Below, one piece after another: positions 23,957-31,393 of a stretch of DNA of 51,560 nt. The DNA is from a virus (Duplodnaviria > Heunggongvirae > Uroviricota > Caudoviricetes), in IMG/VR virus record IMGVR_UViG_2537561778_000008; one strand, written 5' to 3'. Below the pieces are notes generated by a model, which saw only the letters and a program-made list of their open reading frames with translations, did no database searches and was not told the DNA's origin. Position 1 is the first letter of the stretch. Each line of letters starts with the position of its first letter. A program made the position numbers and the translations under genes.

Positions 23957-25150
23957 GTGACCTGGGACGATCACAAAAAGAATTTTGCTCGCCTGGCGCG
24001 AGATGGTGGTTACACCATCGCACAGTATGCCGCCGAGTTTAATCTTAACCCTAATACCGCACGTCGTTATCTCCGTGCCTTCAAAGAAGACACCAGGACT
24101 GCGGACAGCCGCAAGCCAAATAAGCCAGTCAGGAAGCCACTAAAAAGCATGATCATTGATCACTCTAATGATCAACATGCAGGTGATCATATTGCGGCTG
24201 AAATAGCGGAAAAACAGAGAGTTAATGCCGTTGTCAGTGCCGCAGTCGAGAATGCGAAGCGCCAAAATAAGCGCATAAATGATCGTTCAGATGATCATGA
24301 CGTGATCACCCGCGCCCACCGGACCTTACGTGATCGCCTGGAACGCGACACCCTGGATGATGATGGTGAACGCTTTGAATTCGAAGCTGGCGATTACCTG
24401 ATAGATAACGTTGAAGCGCGGAAGGCCGCGCGCGCTATGTTGCGTCGGTCCGGGGCCGATGTTCTGGAAACCACTCTTCTTGAAAAGTCTCTTTCTCATC
24501 TCCTTATGCTGGAGAACGCCAGGGATACGTGTATTCGCCTGGTGCAGGAAATGCGCGATCAGCAAAAAGCCGATGATGAAGGTACTCCGCCTGAATACCG
24601 TATCGCGAGCATGCTAAACAGCTGTTCCGCGCAGATAAGCAGTCTGATCAACACCATTTACAGCATCCGGAATAACTATCGAAAAGAAAGCCGGGAGGCG
24701 GAAAAGCACGCTTTGTCTATGGGGCAAGCTGGCATTGTTAAGCTGGCATACGAACGAAAGCGTGAAAATAACTGGTCAGTGCTGGAAGCAGCTGAATTCA
24801 TCGAGGCGCATGGCGGGAAAGTGCCGCCCCTGATGCTGGAGCAAATCAAAGCCGATCTGCGTGCTCCTAAGACCAATACCGATGATGAGGAAAGGCAAAC
24901 TGCCGTCGGTGGCCCTTCTCTTGAAGATCTGGACAAAGTTGCGCGAGAACGGGCCGCCAACCGCCGCGCCGATGCCGCATTGTGGATTGAGCAACGTAGG
25001 GAAGAAATCGCCGATATCGTTGATACAGGCGGTTATGGAGATGTTGATACTGAAGGTGTATCAAACGACCCATGGCTGGAACAAGACCTGGACGAAGACG
25101 AGGAGGAAGACGAAGAAGTTACCCGCAAGCTATACGGGGATGATGATTAA
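23957..25150 (+). CDS. pacA: Pacase small subunit PacA
   Basis: 397 aa, GTG start; contains the pac site; acidic C-terminus ([11 protein letters not shown]). Confidence 0.85.
24149..24308 (+). other. pac packaging site: seven GATC-containing hexamers in two clusters
   Basis: GATC at 24151, 24158, 24170, 24185 and 24281, 24293, 24304 (TGATCA/G type) within about 160 bp inside pacA. Confidence 0.75.
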
Positions 25151-26634
25151 TGGCCAGAAGTTGCGTAACGGATCCACGTTGGCGCGAGCTGGTGGCGCTA
25201 TATCGTTATGACTGGATTGCGGCCGCTGATGTTTTGTTCGGCAAAACACCTACCTGGCAGCAGGATCTGATTATTGAGTCTGTGCAGGAACAGGGTAGCA
25301 AGACATCTGTTTCGTCTGGCCACGGTACCGGGAAATCAGACATGACTTCTATCATGATCATGTTGTTCATAATCATGTATCCCGGTGCCCGAGCCATTAT
25401 CGTTGCGAACAAAATTCAGCAGGTAATGACCGGTATATTCAAGTACATCAAGATAAACTGGGCTACTGCCACCAGCCGTTTTCCATGGCTTGCTGATTAT
25501 TTTGTTCTGACAGAAACCGCTTTCTATGAGGTTACTGGTAAAGGTGTATGGACTGTAGTACCGAAGGGCTTTCGTCTGGGAAGTGAAGAAGCTCTCGCCG
25601 GTGAACACGCAGATCATCTTCTGTATATTATCGATGAAGCCTCCGGTGTCAGTGATAGAGCTTTCGGTATCATCACCGGTGCTCTTACCGGACAGGATAA
25701 CCGCATCTTATTGCTGTCACAGCCTACACGCCCAAGCGGCTATTTCTACGATACACACCATAAACTGGCCAAGCGTCCTGGTAACCCTGATGGCGTTTAT
25801 ACGGCGATCACGCTTAACAGTGAGGAATCACCGTTGGTAACGCCAGCATTTATCAAAATGAAGCTGGCGGAGTACGGCGGGCGTGATAACCCTATGTACA
25901 TGATTAAGGTACGCGGCCTATTCCCTAAATCACAGGATGGCTTCCTTCTTGGACGTGATGAGGTTGAACGTGCAACGCGGCGGAAAGTCAAGATTGCAAA
26001 AGGATGGGGCTGGCTTGCATGTGTGGACGTTGCTGGTGGTACGGGACGGGATAAGTCCGTTATCAATATCATGATGGTGTCCGGCCAGCGAAATAAACGC
26101 CGTGTAATCAACTATCGAATGCTGGAATACACAGACGTTACAGAAACGCAGCTTGCCGCCAAAATTTTCGCAGAATGTAATCCTGAGCGATTCCCAAATA
26201 TCACCATAGCGATAGACGGCGATGGTCTGGGTAAAGCAACGGCGGATCTGATGTACGAGTATTATGGTATTACCGTACAGCGTATACGCTGGGGTAAAAA
26301 GATGCATAGCCGTGAAGATAAGAGCCTGTACTTTGATAAACGTGCTTATGCCAACGTTCAAGCCGCAGAGGCCGTAAAATCTGGTCGTATGAGACTGGAT
26401 AAGGGTAATGAAACTATTGAGGAAGCGTCGAAAATCCCTGTAGGGATTAACTCCGCAGGTCAATGGAAGGTGATGAGTAAGGAGGATATGAAGAAAAAAC
26501 TCAACCTGCACTCACCAGACCATTGGGATACATATTGTTTCGCTATGCTGGCGGATTATGTTCCCCAGGATGAAGTGCTTAGCGTCGAAGACGAAGCGCA
26601 GGTTGATGAAGCTCTGGCATGGCTTAATGAATGA
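25150..26634 (+). CDS. pacB: Pacase large subunit PacB (terminase ATPase-nuclease)
   Basis: 494 aa; Walker A-like SGHGTGKS and Walker B-like LLYIIDEAS; ATG overlaps pacA stop. Confidence 0.85.
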
Positions 26635-26637
26635 ATA

Positions 26638-26654
26638 TTTGCTCTAATAAATTG
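26638..26654 (+). promoter_or_regulatory. C1 operator-like site (TTTGCTCTAATAAATTG)
   Basis: Core TTGCTCTAATAAATT, 4 nt after pacB stop. Confidence 0.45.
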
Positions 26655-26786
26655 TGTTTTTTAGCTACCGATGTTACATTGAACCTGACCTCTTGCGCCT
26701 TGAGGCATTTTCGGTTTATGCTTATCAGGCACCTCATTAAAACGGGTGCCGGGATTGGAACCCCGGATAATGCAAAAGGCGACACA

Positions 26787-26808
26787 GACGCCAAAAGCGT
26801 CTTTTTTT
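26787..26808 (+). terminator. Rho-independent terminator (GACGC-CAAAA-GCGTC plus T7)
   Basis: 5-bp stem followed by TTTTTTT, about 150 bp downstream of pacB. Confidence 0.5.
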
Positions 26809-26993
26809 GTGTCATGCCATCGCACAGCCATACGTAGCACATAGCTCCGAGATCAATGGTAGTGCTGGCTGGGCTGCCGAAAGGCAGGCCGGTTCCCTTT
26901 TGCGCCGGTAGTTCCAACCCAGTCAGTGCTACCGCCATTGAGATTGGAACCTCACGCGGTAGCTCCTTAAGTTAGCAAAAGGAGGCTGCCATT

Positions 26994-27215
26994 ATGGCTA
27001 CTATCCCTACCCCAACTCACTCTGAATTTATCTGGCGCTTTTACTCCTGCCAGAAACGTCACTATCACTTCGTTATCGCAACAACAGAAGATGAGGCCCG
27101 CTCTCAGCTTCCTGACGCCCCATGTATTTTCTCTGCCCGTTTTTCCACTGATTCACGCAATTCTCTCAGTTACTGGTGCCTCCCTGTTAACGCTTCTGCT
27201 CAGGAGGGAGTATGA
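26994..27215 (+). CDS. Small hypothetical protein (73 aa) with strong SD
   Basis: AAAGGAGG SD 7 nt upstream; stop overlaps next start. Confidence 0.4.
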   Translation: MATIPTPTHSEFIWRFYSCQKRHYHFVIATTEDEARSQLPDAPCIFSARFSTDSRNSLSYWCLPVNASAQEGV

Positions 27216-28324
27216 GAACGTCATTAGTCACCCGTGAAGAAATGATTGAGGCAATTGAACAGCACACAGCCTGTATCAGTACCAGGGATATACCTGGCGT
27301 TATTGCCAACTACTTCATGATCACCAAACAACTTTACCGGAGAAAGGACAAGAACGCGGTTCACCGCATCCTGCTAACCGATATCCGTGAATACCTGCTC
27401 GAACAGGGTCATCTGAATTACGCAACCGTCGCAGCCGAAGCACGCAAGGAGGCACACAGAATGAAAGCAACTAACGTTAAATCAGAAAAAATTTATGCAC
27501 CTTCAGTTCAGGAATCGGAACTGGTGGTTGTTCAGAATCAGCCGGATGAAATTCCCGTTCTGGAATGGCAGGGAGTACGTGTCGTGACAACCGAAACTCT
27601 TGCTAGAGGGTATGGGGTCGATGAAGCCAATATTCGCAACAATTTGTCTCGCAACCTTGACCGCTTTGAAGAAGGTAAGCATTACTTTCTTCTAACTGGT
27701 TTAAAATTAAGAGAATTTAAGAACAGAGTAACCGGAAGTTACTCTGTTGGTAAGAACGCCAGAAGCCTTACACTCTGGACAGAGCGCGGCGCTGCACGCA
27801 TGTCTAAGATCGTGGACACAAATGAAGCATGGGCATTCTTTGAAAAACTGGAAGACAGCTACTTCCGGCAAAAAGAACAGCAACCGATCGCAATCCCCCA
27901 GACGCTTCCAGAAGCTCTGCGCCTGGCTGCCGAACTGGCTGAACAAAAGCAACTTCTGGAACAGAAAGCCCACCAGCTAAATCAGCAGCTGGTGGCCGCA
28001 GCCCCTAAAGTCGATTTTGCCGACCGGGTATCAGTGGCCAAGGGGATCCTGATTGGAAATTTTGCAAAGGTTGTTGGACTTAAGCAAAACGCGCTGTTTG
28101 CCTGGTTACGGGAGAACGGCATCCTGATAGCGTCCGGTGGACGTAAAAATGTGCCGTTCCAGCAATACATCAACGCCGGGTATTTCACGGTGAAAGAAGT
28201 GGTGCTGGATGATGAAGATGGCTACCAGATACGGTTGACGCCTCAATTAACGGGGAAAGGCCAGCAGTGGTTGACGCGTAAACTGCTCGATGCTGGCTTG
28301 TTAAAACCGGTGGCGGCTGAATAA
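27212..28324 (+). CDS. Phage antirepressor-like protein (Bro-N/ORF6N-like N-terminus, KilA-C/ORF6C-like C-terminus)
   Basis: 370 aa; N-terminal EWQGVRVVTTETLARGYGVDEANIRNNLSRNLDRFEEGKHYFLL and C-terminal VSVAKGILIGNFAKVVGLKQNALFAWLRENGIL resemble Ant/KilAC families; domain call from memory. Confidence 0.45.
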   Translation: MRTSLVTREEMIEAIEQHTACISTRDIPGVIANYFMITKQLYRRKDKNAVHRILLTDIREYLLEQGHLNYATVAAEARKEAHRMKATNVKSEKIYAPSVQESELVVVQNQPDEIPVLEWQGVRVVTTETLARGYGVDEANIRNNLSRNLDRFEEGKHYFLLTGLKLREFKNRVTGSYSVGKNARSLTLWTERGAARMSKIVDTNEAWAFFEKLEDSYFRQKEQQPIAIPQTLPEALRLAAELAEQKQLLEQKAHQLNQQLVAAAPKVDFADRVSVAKGILIGNFAKVVGLKQNALFAWLRENGILIASGGRKNVPFQQYINAGYFTVKEVVLDDEDGYQIRLTPQLTGKGQQWLTRKLLDAGLLKPVAAE

Positions 28325-28356
28325 TGGAAGAATGCCCGGTTGATGCCGGGCATAAT

Positions 28357-29208
28357 TTATTGCGCGCTTTCGGGGTTGTCGTTTACTGGCTGCCCCTTCT
28401 TGGTTTTACGGCTGCGCGTAACTGATGCGGCTGACTTAACCTTTTTCTCTTCGCGAGTGATGGCAATTTGTTTTTTTACATTTTCAATATCTGCCAGGCG
28501 ATATATTTTTGCTTGCGGCCAGCGGTCGCAGATGATCGGTTCTATGGAGTCATAAAGGCTAAATTTTGCTTTTTCGAATTCACCGTTGATGATAATTCCA
28601 TCACGGAGAGTTTCATCGCAGATAAACACGCCACACAGTGGCACATGGTAACTAACTGATTTACCATCATTGTAGTTAGGGCTACTGGAAATGTAGTGGA
28701 CGCGCAGCATTGTTTCGCTAAAGCCGTGTACGCGCATACGGAATTTTTCATCCTCCGGGTACTGCCTCATTAGCTCTTTTGTTGCTTCCAGGTTCTCTAT
28801 GTATTTCGCACTGTGCTCATTGATCCCCGCGCTTTTTTGGATGCGAATGTCCTTATCAATCAGATGAATAATGCGGCCAGCGGTCATGTTGACGCTGTTC
28901 ACAGCTTCTGTCTGATAAGTTGTAACCTTGCGCACACCGCGAAGGATGTTAGGCACTGGATATAAAATAGTCTTTGGGATATTGAGGTCTGGGTACTGTT
29001 CCAGTTCCCGCGCCATTAAAGTCCATTTATCAATTTCAGCCTGAATGCTGTCAGTTTCTTTGAACGGTAGAACGACAACCGGGCGTACAGGACGACCGTC
29101 GCTGGCTGTATCAACGTGTTGGGCGCGTGCAACGGCTTTTTTTAGAAAGAGATCCCTGAAGCTGACGAACTCCTGGTACAGTTGTTCGCCGTAGACATAA
29201 TTTATCAT
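28357..29208 (-). CDS. c1: C1 repressor of lysogeny
   Basis: 283 aa starting MINYVYGEQLYQEFVSFRDLFLKKAVARAQ; matches P1 C1 as I recall it; cognate operators present. Confidence 0.9.
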   Translation of the reverse strand: MINYVYGEQLYQEFVSFRDLFLKKAVARAQHVDTASDGRPVRPVVVLPFKETDSIQAEIDKWTLMARELEQYPDLNIPKTILYPVPNILRGVRKVTTYQTEAVNSVNMTAGRIIHLIDKDIRIQKSAGINEHSAKYIENLEATKELMRQYPEDEKFRMRVHGFSETMLRVHYISSSPNYNDGKSVSYHVPLCGVFICDETLRDGIIINGEFEKAKFSLYDSIEPIICDRWPQAKIYRLADIENVKKQIAITREEKKVKSAASVTRSRKTKKGQPVNDNPESAQ

Positions 29209-29302: not shown

Positions 29303-29319
29303 AGATTTATTAGTGCATT
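29303..29319 (-). promoter_or_regulatory. C1 operator-like site (AATGCACTAATAAATCT) between coi and c1
   Basis: 14/17 match; overlaps coi stop. Confidence 0.4.
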
Positions 29320-29528
29320 TATTGTGAGTCTAACTGGTTAGTTGCCATGAGATATTCGATTGTGTCAGTGAGGTCATCCAGGTCGTCTTGGGTGATGCGG
29401 TACTCCTGATTGGATATCTTTGAGTAGTGTTCAGCAATGGCGCGGGCAGCGTCGGTTTCGGCAGGGTCTACAGATAAAGCGTTAGAGCAATGTCTAACGT
29501 CGTCGATGGTTGGTTGAATGAAAGCCAT
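29319..29528 (-). CDS. coi: Coi, C1 inactivator
   Basis: 69 aa acidic protein directly upstream of c1 on the same strand, as in P1. Confidence 0.8.
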   Translation of the reverse strand: MAFIQPTIDDVRHCSNALSVDPAETDAARAIAEHYSKISNQEYRITQDDLDDLTDTIEYLMATNQLDSQ

Positions 29529-30361: not shown

Positions 30362-31393
30362 ATGTCTAATTTACTGACCGTACACCAAAATTTGCCTGCA
30401 TTACCGGTCGATGCAACAAGTGATGAGGTTCGCAAGAACCTGATGGACATGTTCAGGGATCGCCAGGCGTTTTCTGAGCATACCTGGAAAATGCTTCTGT
30501 CCGTTTGCCGGTCGTGGGCGGCATGGTGCAAGTTGAATAACCGGAAGTGGTTTCCCGCAGAACCTGAAGATGTTCGCGATTATCTTCTATATCTTCAGGC
30601 GCGCGGTCTGGCAGTGAAAACTATCCAGCAACATTTGGGCCAGCTAAATATGCTTCATCGTCGGTCCGGGCTGCCACGACCAAGTGACAGCAATGCTGTT
30701 TCACTGGTCATGCGACGGATCCGAAAAGAAAACGTTGATGCCGGTGAGCGTGCAAAACAGGCGCTGGCGTTCGAACGCACTGATTTCGACCAGGTTCGTT
30801 CACTCATGGAAAATAGCGATCGCTGCCAGGATATACGTAATCTGGCATTTCTGGGGATTGCTTATAACACCCTGTTACGTATAGCCGAAATTTCTAGGAT
30901 CAGAGTTAAAGATATCTCACGTACTGACGGTGGGAGAATGTTAATCCATATTGGCAGAACGAAAACGCTGGTTAGCACCGCTGGTGTAGAGAAGGCACTT
31001 AGTCTGGGGGTAACTAAACTGGTTGAGCGATGGATTTCTGTCTCTGGTGTGGCTGATGATCCGAATAACTACTTGTTTTGCCGTGTCAGAAAAAATGGTG
31101 TTGCCGCGCCATCTGCCACCAGCCAGCTATCAACTCGCGCCCTGGAAGGGATTTTTGAAGCAACTCACCGATTGATTTACGGGGCTAAGGATGACTCTGG
31201 CCAGAGGTACCTGGCCTGGTCTGGACACAGTGCCCGTGTCGGAGCCGCGCGAGATATGGCCCGCGCCGGAGTTTCAATACCGGAGATCATGCAAGCTGGT
31301 GGCTGGACCAACGTAAATATTGTCATGAACTATATCCGTAATCTGGATAGTGAAACGGGGGCAATGGTGCGCCTGCTGGAAGATGGTGATTAG
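30362..31393 (+). CDS. cre: Cre tyrosine recombinase
   Basis: 343 aa MSNLLTVHQNLPALPVDATSDEVRKNLMDMFRDRQAFSEHTWKMLLSVCRSWAAWCKLNNRKWFPAEPEDVRDYLLYLQARGLAVKTIQQHLGQLNMLHRRSGLPRPSDSNAVSLVMRRIRKENVDAGERAKQALAFERTDFDQVRSLMENSDRCQDIRNLAFLGIAYNTLLRIAEISRIRVKDISRTDGGRMLIHIGRTKTLVSTAGVEKALSLGVTKLVERWISVSGVADDPNNYLFCRVRKNGVAAPSATSQLSTRALEGIFEATHRLIYGAKDDSGQRYLAWSGHSARVGAARDMARAGVSIPEIMQAGGWTNVNIVMNYIRNLDSETGAMVRLLEDGD; matches P1 Cre as I recall it. Confidence 0.97.
   Translation: MSNLLTVHQNLPALPVDATSDEVRKNLMDMFRDRQAFSEHTWKMLLSVCRSWAAWCKLNNRKWFPAEPEDVRDYLLYLQARGLAVKTIQQHLGQLNMLHRRSGLPRPSDSNAVSLVMRRIRKENVDAGERAKQALAFERTDFDQVRSLMENSDRCQDIRNLAFLGIAYNTLLRIAEISRIRVKDISRTDGGRMLIHIGRTKTLVSTAGVEKALSLGVTKLVERWISVSGVADDPNNYLFCRVRKNGVAAPSATSQLSTRALEGIFEATHRLIYGAKDDSGQRYLAWSGHSARVGAARDMARAGVSIPEIMQAGGWTNVNIVMNYIRNLDSETGAMVRLLEDGD

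Follow-up and report, generated by a model that had tools for sequence, protein, structure and literature searches.

In the immunity locus immI of phage P1, RNase P reportedly cuts the antisense RNA C4 out of the operon transcript, and C4 is said to block translation of icd, which leads to premature termination before ant, as reported in the P1 c4 work of Citron and Schuster in 1990 and 1992, Biere et al. in 1992 and Hartmann et al. in 1995. The P1 Icd protein reportedly inhibits cell division in a reversible manner, as Riedel et al. described in 1993. Here, we analyzed a window of 51,560 nucleotides (nt), the whole stretch of DNA held in IMG/VR record IMGVR_UViG_2537561778_000008, whose source element is a P1-like (Punavirus) phage-plasmid. 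We report that positions 26635-28356, which take the place of a 24-bp gap between the genes pacB and c1, likely form a second, complete immI-type immunity cassette that would work as immI does. To judge by homology, it most likely serves heteroimmunity as an additional antirepressor module that is under C4 control and orthogonal to the first.

The c4 RNA of P1 represses synthesis of Ant1/Ant2, the complex that serves as antirepressor of C1 (PMC8546580); the heteroimmunity of P1 and P7 rests on differences in c4 and its targets (PMC6906374; PMC12197685). In Gifsy-1, supplying the small RNA (sRNA) IsrK in trans boosts translation of a small open reading frame (ORF) and an antirepressor gene downstream by a factor of more than 100 (Hershko-Shalev et al., 2016, PMC4825925), and this activation needs pairing between the middle region of IsrK and a site ~130-145 nt downstream (PMC4825925). 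Within the family, such activation and binding of Hfq are on record for the Gifsy-1 IsrK only (PMC4825925). At the pacB-c1 position itself, two short ORFs and ant have been described in pTZ20_1P, as in RCS47 (Venturini et al., 2019, PMC6906374). Our literature search found no account of C4 or IsrK-like RNAs in this cassette, of its code types, or of a link between IsrK and the a1/b1 sites of C4 systems.

A putative immI-type cassette between pacB and c1

The annotation of P1 immI runs, in order, Oc4, P51a, P51b, a1, b1, c4, a2, b2, icd (73 amino acids, aa), ant1, which overlaps icd by 4 nt, and ant2. All parts of the P1/P7 locus recur in the insert in the same order and with like spacing: an operator-like site upstream, a C4 RNA that falls into the Rfam family of the P1 one, 7-nt a sites and 8-nt b sites with b2 lying over the Shine-Dalgarno (SD) sequence of icd, a 73-aa icd joined to ant by an ATGA overlap, and a probable Ant2 start at codon 84. 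Since every immI part is present in this order and the upstream part of the insert aligns with that of P1, we read the insert as a second immI-type cassette (Table 1).

In P1, 24 bp lie between the stop codon of pacB at 93206 and the c1 end at 93231. P1 and P7 match our 2.2-kb query only at its pacB and c1 ends and lack the insert, as the initial annotation had anticipated for P1. When the pacB-c1 intervals are aligned, divergence from P1 begins exactly at the pacB and c1 stop codons, and no flanking repeats were seen at the junctions in this alignment. About 1.7 kb have therefore been inserted relative to P1. The C1 protein encoded next to the insert is 98.9-100% identical to C1 of P1 and JL22. 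A search of the window for sim, kilA and repL, the genes of the immI map position, found none of them; together with the location between pacB and c1, this identifies the insert as a paralogous cassette rather than the canonical immI locus.

An Rfam scan of the whole window placed two RNA genes in the cassette, both downstream of the operator-like site and ahead of the small ORF. The first belongs to the IsrK family: it scores above the gathering threshold, folds into three hairpins and closes with an intrinsic terminator according to both the fold and a terminator scan, in line with the terminator that had been noticed ahead of the ORFs. The second is a full-length C4, whose minimum free energy fold (-46.4 kcal/mol, z = -5.07) consists of a long closing stem and two hairpins. 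Over 7 and 8 nt, its a' and b' sites are exactly complementary to two sets of targets: a2 and b2, which lie in the leader of icd, and a1 and b1, which lie in the IsrK-like RNA. Two ORFs that overlap the RNA region, one of 104 aa on the minus strand and one of 68 aa on the plus strand, have no Pfam or NCBIfam match and were treated as non-coding.

The initial annotation had described the locus as a small ORF with a strong SD, translationally coupled to an antirepressor-like gene. Both ORFs, the SD and the coupling were recovered; what had been overlooked are the IsrK-like and C4 RNAs, the identity of the small ORF as icd and the internal Ant2 start. The small ORF matches NCBIfam NF033153 (phage_ICD_like, E = 2.3e-13) and PHROG 1426 (E = 5.8e-45). 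In the 370-aa protein, a domain search returned the two antirepressor domains that had been suspected at its ends, ORF6N (Pfam PF10543, residues 116-200, E = 2.4e-18, 66.6 bits versus a cut-off of 27.8) and KilA-C (Pfam ANT/KilAC, PF03374, residues 258-359, E = 1.5e-31, 109.3 bits versus 25.3), in agreement with PHROG 63, "anti-repressor Ant" (E = 4e-136). The protein had rightly been called Ant-like but not recognized as a full-length paralogue of P1 Ant1/Ant2: it shares 57% identity with P1 Ant1 across 99% of its length, and residues 1-100 and 220-370 align closely, with a likeness of ~70% in the N-terminal and ~93% in the C-terminal part. The center is the most variable part among cassettes. 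Met84, from which a probable in-frame Ant2-like product would start, is unchanged when the protein is aligned with P1 Ant1, and P1 ant2 begins at codon 84 (48937 versus 48688); in the window, an AAGGAGG SD (27446-27452) lies 8 nt before the Met84 ATG (27461).

A search of solved-structure sequences gave only chance-level matches, to ribosomal protein L9. We also considered Roi and Ant of Stx phages as the same cassette and rejected them on gene layout and annotation: they match the center and C-terminus of Ant, but are two separate nin-region genes in another annotated context.

Upstream of the RNA genes, the operator-like 17-mer TTTGCTCTAATAAATTG, already noted in the initial annotation, aligns with P1 Oc4 AATGCTCTAATAAATTT and provides a putative C1-controlled operator at the homologous position. 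Twelve C1-operator-like sites (at most three mismatches) occur in the window versus 0.35 expected by chance, a dispersal that is the expectation for a P1-type genome; the other 11 lie at 10587, 14212, 14261, 16353, 23332, 29303, 29767, 29850, 31888, 45894 and 51039. Of two candidate promoters, the P51a-like one has its -35 element overlapping the operator-like site, and the P51b-like one has a predicted start at ~26729. Phage D6 keeps TTGCGC...TATATT at the latter despite a different upstream sequence.

Table 1. Cassette features and surrounding genes in the window (positions in nt)
Feature	Position	Strand	Remarks
pacA	23957-25150	+	upstream of pacB
pacB, terminase large subunit; left flank of insert	25150-26634	+	ORF list; annotated as pacB in RCS47, JL22 and P1
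C1-operator-like 17-mer TTTGCTCTAATAAATTG	26638-26654	+	15/17 versus consensus; positional homologue of P1 Oc4/Op51
P51a-like promoter candidate	26652-26680	+	-35 TTGTGT, 17-nt spacer, -10 TACATT; suggested by positional homology to P1 P2c4/P51a
P51b-like/isrK promoter candidate	26693-26722	+	-35 TTGCGC, 18-nt spacer, -10 TATGCT; suggested by positional homology to P1 P1c4/P51b
IsrK-family small RNA	26729-26807	+	Rfam RF01394, 62.4 bits versus gathering 50, model positions 1-77/77
a1 (TTGGAAC), hairpin loop of IsrK-like RNA	26755-26761	+	complementary to a'
b1 (GCAAAAGG), linker of IsrK-like RNA	26772-26779	+	complementary to b'
Intrinsic terminator of IsrK-like RNA	hairpin 26786-26802 and T-run, to 26809	+	terminator scan
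C4 antisense RNA	26852-26939	+	Rfam RF01695, 76.7 bits versus gathering 45, full length 1-87/87
b' (CCTTTTGC), loop of C4 hairpin 2	26896-26903	+	
a' (GTTCCAA), single-stranded junction of C4	26911-26917	+	
a2 (TTGGAAC), icd leader	26944-26950	+	
b2 (GCAAAAGG), icd leader	26975-26982	+	overlaps icd SD
icd SD AAGGAGG	26979-26985	+	8 nt before ATG
icd homologue, 73 aa	26994-27215	+	71% identical to P1 Icd, equal length
ant1 homologue, 370 aa	27212-28324	+	ATGA overlap with icd
Probable ant2-like in-frame product, 287 aa, from Met84	27461-28324	+	predicted from sequence
GC-rich terminator-like hairpin between convergent ant and c1	28332-28353		right junction of insert versus P1
c1 repressor; right flank of insert	28357-29208	-	ORF list
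coi	29319-29528	-	
cre	30362-31393	+	
tRNA gene	1593-1665	+	Rfam tRNA, 64.7 bits

Covariation of the RNA sites and the proposed switch

Using the Icd protein, we gathered 79 related loci from IMG/VR, most of them in a pacB...c1 context. Formal pair counts were made on 27 distinct cassettes, which are related sequences, so that the counts reflect few independent events. Taking the C4 stems together with a':a2 and b':b2, 1134 of 1134 cells are paired (100%) and 16 pairs are compensatory; slid controls pair at 26-50%. The internal stems of C4 are 100% paired with nine compensatory pairs, and a':a2 and b':b2 are both 100% paired with compensatory changes in 4/7 and 3/8 pairs. The same holds for a1:a' and b1:b' (100% paired; 4/7 and 3/8 compensatory). 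The three copies of each site (a1/a'/a2 and b1/b'/b2) vary in concert across loci, and this three-way compensatory covariation indicates that selection is continuing.

At least five specificity types occur at pacB-c1: type A in the window (a GGAAC, b GCAAAAGG), type B in JL22 (a GAGAC, b GCAAAAGG), type C in RCS47 (a GAGAC, b GTCAAAGG), type D in two IMG/VR loci, L042 and L045 (a GGAAC, b GTCAAAGG), and type E in 673R5 (a GGCCT, b GTCTAAGG). Because all four pairings of two a-types with two b-types are found, alongside the fifth type, the a and b sites assort independently.

Further variation was seen around these sites. In seven type-E cassettes, the stretch from the IsrK terminator to C4 is shorter by 21 nt (alignment columns 137-157), and compensatory changes run throughout the C4 closing stem of type-E cassettes. 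In JL22 and seven other loci, icd starts with GTG instead of ATG behind the same SD, which may adjust the basal level of Icd and Ant. The closing stem of C4 has a 3' arm (GCTACCGC, 26928-26935) that is complementary to the leader sequence GCGGTAGC (26956-26963) between a2 and b2, and in type-E cassettes both sides of this complementarity are changed (CCACCGC / GCGGTGG); as a weak suggestion from two haplotypes only, the two could pair in this alternative way before the precursor is processed. Folded alone, the leader forms a local hairpin that sequesters the icd SD, but we dropped it in view of a z of just -0.84 and a 5' arm that type-E cassettes do not conserve. On the C4 gene of the closest plasmid, NCBI annotates a 39-aa "ash family protein" coding sequence (L089, 1957-2076), and the equivalent ORF in the window (26856-26975, plus strand) matches Pfam Phage_ASH (PF10554, E = 1.3e-7); the call is probably a translated RNA gene.

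Scanning IMG/VR for the IsrK core returned 100 distinct segments. An exact a' together with an exact downstream a2 is present in 91/100 and an exact b triple in 73/100; we estimate the chance rate for a 7-mer search at ~0.02, a figure of our own and not a tool result. Together, these segments show four a-types and 13 b-types. The cargo behind the IsrK-C4 leaders varies: an Icd-like ORF may be followed by Ant1-type, Rha-type or other genes, a Bro-N-type gene may come directly after the leader, and some cassettes have an Icd-like ORF without a recognizable Ant. Given this variety, the IsrK-C4 leader appears to be a portable switch. In the genome collection, most matches to the IsrK core were chance ones from GC-rich genomes, and no locus of Salmonella enterica was among those listed.

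We propose that the cassette works as follows. Transcription would start from one or two promoters just 3' of the C1-operator-like site, as positional homology suggests. Most transcripts would end at the terminator and yield an IsrK-family sRNA of ~80 nt bearing a1 and b1, the ratio being our assumption, and read-through transcripts would carry the C4, icd and ant sequences that follow the terminator. C4 would be released from its precursor, as by RNase P in P1, and its a' and b' would pair with a2 and b2 of the leader, b2 lying over the icd SD, as complementarity and covariation both indicate. Pairing would block translation of icd and, through translational and transcriptional coupling, expression of ant. 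When C4 is insufficient or mismatched, as when a resident prophage has another code, Icd and Ant1/Ant2 would be made, and Ant would inactivate C1, to judge from its 57% full-length homology to P1 Ant1/2. The IsrK-like RNA, whose pairing with C4 is seen in the sequence, may compete for C4 as an anti-antisense inducer, a role modeled on Gifsy-1 IsrK. Because the pairing distance in Gifsy-1 (~130-145 nt) matches that from a1 to a' in the cassettes studied here (131-174 nt), the IsrK-like RNA could titrate C4. Ant would be made by an incoming phage with the cassette except where the resident prophage provides C4 of type A, and a resident with the cassette would silence incoming type-A ant genes. 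Since the code TTGGAAC/GCAAAAGG and those of the canonical P1 type do not pair with each other, the cassette would add an independent heteroimmunity specificity.

Distribution among P1-like elements

In PLSDB, 804 records match our 2.2-kb query, and 270 of them (about a third) contain 80% or more of it. An IncY plasmid from Salmonella 4,[5],12:i:- is the best plasmid match (99.0%), and in the NCBI annotation of this closest plasmid the two proteins appear as Icd-like and as KilAC antirepressor. RCS47, pTZ20_1P, JL22 and vB_EcoM-673R5 carry the same insertion at the same site with 90-97% DNA identity, and their records leave its RNAs unannotated. RCS47 annotates "ant" at pacB-c1, and JL22 and 673R5 call the gene DNA-binding protein Roi. 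RCS47, JL22 and 673R5 differ from the window in their a/b codes (types C, B and E, respectively), and the Ant center differs as well, the window Ant being 86% identical to that of RCS47. The module is thus already recorded and common in P1-like plasmids, and its gene content is not new; as this content is already in databases, the gain lies in its interpretation and not in a new kind of system.

P1-like elements hold cassettes at three sites: at immI before kilA-repL, between pacB and c1, and ~3 kb from cre. Cassettes at the canonical immI site carry either a P1-type or an IsrK-type leader. Those near cre, with cre upstream in three loci and downstream on the opposite strand in four, have P1-type leaders with several further a/b codes; the window has no cassette near cre. 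Three contigs each contain two separate cassette loci. The full genome of JL22, 97% identical to the window over the region and with a 99.5% identical Ant, carries both a canonical immI (a TTGACAG, b GATTGTGA) and a pacB-c1 cassette (a TTGAGAC, b GCAAAAGG), with a cross-complementarity between the two of at most 6 nt. The coexistence of two non-cross-pairing codes and the part-for-part mirroring of immI fit the earlier suggestion that the insert adds a second layer of immunity control.

Exchange between sites is apparent in six immI-site contigs, in which an IsrK-type leader with a type-A code is followed by kilA-repL. These leaders are joined to either a P1-type Ant1 (94%) or a window-type Ant (88%), from which we infer that leader and cargo have been exchanged between sites. 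In one pacB-c1 locus (L017, 3219-4532), ~1.3 kb separates icd from ant, which may be an insertion sequence that uncouples the two genes. Two pacB alleles accompany the cassette, ~100% and ~88.7% identical to the window PacB, P1 PacB being of the 88.7% type, so presence of the cassette does not follow a single backbone lineage.

Alternative explanations and comparison with known systems

Several points weigh against an immI-like function of the cassette. The operator-like site has two mismatches to the consensus, and a consensus promoter scan called nothing upstream of the RNAs, the candidate hexamers being weak (7/12 each). The canonical immI position falls outside the window. Mutating the a1-equivalent of Gifsy-1 in cis raises basal expression (PMC4825925), which misfits a simple decoy role of a1/b1. 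Finally, the central third of Ant, formed by ORF6N, is unrelated to the center of P1 Ant1, which has no ORF6N domain, so that C1 binding could differ. That Ant acts on C1 is what we infer from comparing the proteins.

This last step is where the best surviving alternative departs. It keeps the RNA control as described and has the Ant-like protein act on something other than C1, as a Roi-like DNA-binding regulator, as an antirepressor against the repressors of other prophages, or as an anti-defense factor. We regard it as unlikely. It would be in keeping with the divergent and variable center of Ant, with the Roi annotations in JL22 and 673R5, with IsrK-C4 leaders that elsewhere drive Rha-type or Bro-N-type genes or an Icd-like ORF only, and with the weak resemblance of ORF6N to candidate defense-system proteins described below. 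However, the N-terminal 100 aa and C-terminal 150 aa resemble P1 Ant1/2, the Ant2 start is conserved, and the cassette adjoins c1 and has a C1-operator-like site. An anti-defense role had been raised in the initial annotation, and nothing points there: PADLOC returned only weak matches of the Ant ORF6N domain to proteins of the candidate defense systems PDC-S05 and PDC-M59A (E 1e-7 to 5e-3) and nothing for Icd, and no described defense or anti-defense family was matched.

It is still less probable that the cassette is mainly a maintenance or addiction module, in which an Icd toxin checked by C4 RNA would stabilize the plasmid prophage and would not set immunity specificity. The small ORF does belong to the Icd family, whose P1 member reportedly inhibits cell division reversibly, and certain IsrK-C4 cassettes have an Icd-like ORF without a recognizable Ant; at pacB-c1, however, ant is always coupled to icd and intact, and diversification of the a/b codes is a prediction of immunity specificity and something for which a toxin-antitoxin pair confined to one replicon has no use. 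An inert duplicated immI remnant, which would explain why the cassette is a paralogue of a module elsewhere in P1-like genomes, is already disfavored and scarcely credible, as the ORFs are intact, the cassette is conserved across hundreds of plasmids and the covariation of its RNA sites shows ongoing selection.

Beyond a second immI-type cassette in this element, we tentatively put forward a broader reading, about which we are rather doubtful as a whole. IsrK-family sRNAs would generally be the terminated a1b1 leaders of C4-type switches, that is, code-matched anti-antisense RNAs; P1-like phage-plasmids would hold up to three cassettes (immI, pacB-c1 and near cre) whose a/b codes recombine freely; and the "orf45" region of Gifsy-1 would be a C4 homologue, making the published IsrK mechanism a special case of C4 titration. 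If so, a combinatorial RNA barcode would set which relatives superinfect or induce which lysogens. P1-like phage-plasmids often carry resistance genes in E. coli and Salmonella, and immunity governs which of them coexist, exclude or induce one another. Predictions of heteroimmunity that consider no more than immI and immC would change with a second antirepressor switch that has a code of its own. The code of three sites, with its perfect covariation, also offers a direct experimental handle on the role of a1/b1 and ties together IsrK and C4, RNA families treated apart in the literature (PMC4825925, PMC12197685). This code merits specialist attention, as do the link of IsrK to C4 and the insertion of cassettes at several sites.

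Among known systems, the isrK-orf45-anrP locus of Gifsy-1 (Salmonella) shares with the cassette an IsrK-family sRNA with a leaky terminator, past which read-through reaches a small ORF and, coupled to it by ATGA, an antirepressor-like gene. It differs in that PMC4825925 describes no C4 and places orf45 where C4 sits here, and in its cargo, AnrP, which acts on antQ; we equate helix b-I of Gifsy-1 with a1:a' tentatively, from positions. In the icd-ant region of phage D6, the IsrK-like RNA, C4 and the start of icd have ~94% DNA identity to the window, with the code TTGAGAC/GCAAAAGG, but the downstream antirepressor is Rha-type (313 aa, Pfam Phage_pRha) and not Ant1-like, and the genomic context is another. 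The sar/ant system of P22 and the CI RNA immunity of P4 likewise use a small antisense RNA, to limit an antirepressor in P22 and lytic genes in P4 (PMC12197685), yet sar is a true cis-antisense RNA without a two-site a/b code, and P4 has neither icd nor ant.

The closest relative is the immI locus of P1 and P7, which lies between sim and kilA, whereas the cassette described here lies between pacB and c1. The P1 leader matches the Rfam family c4-a1b1, and that of the insert is IsrK-type with a strong intrinsic terminator; the center of Ant is an ORF6N domain here and lacks it in P1 Ant1. The a/b codes of the two loci are unlike and do not cross-pair.

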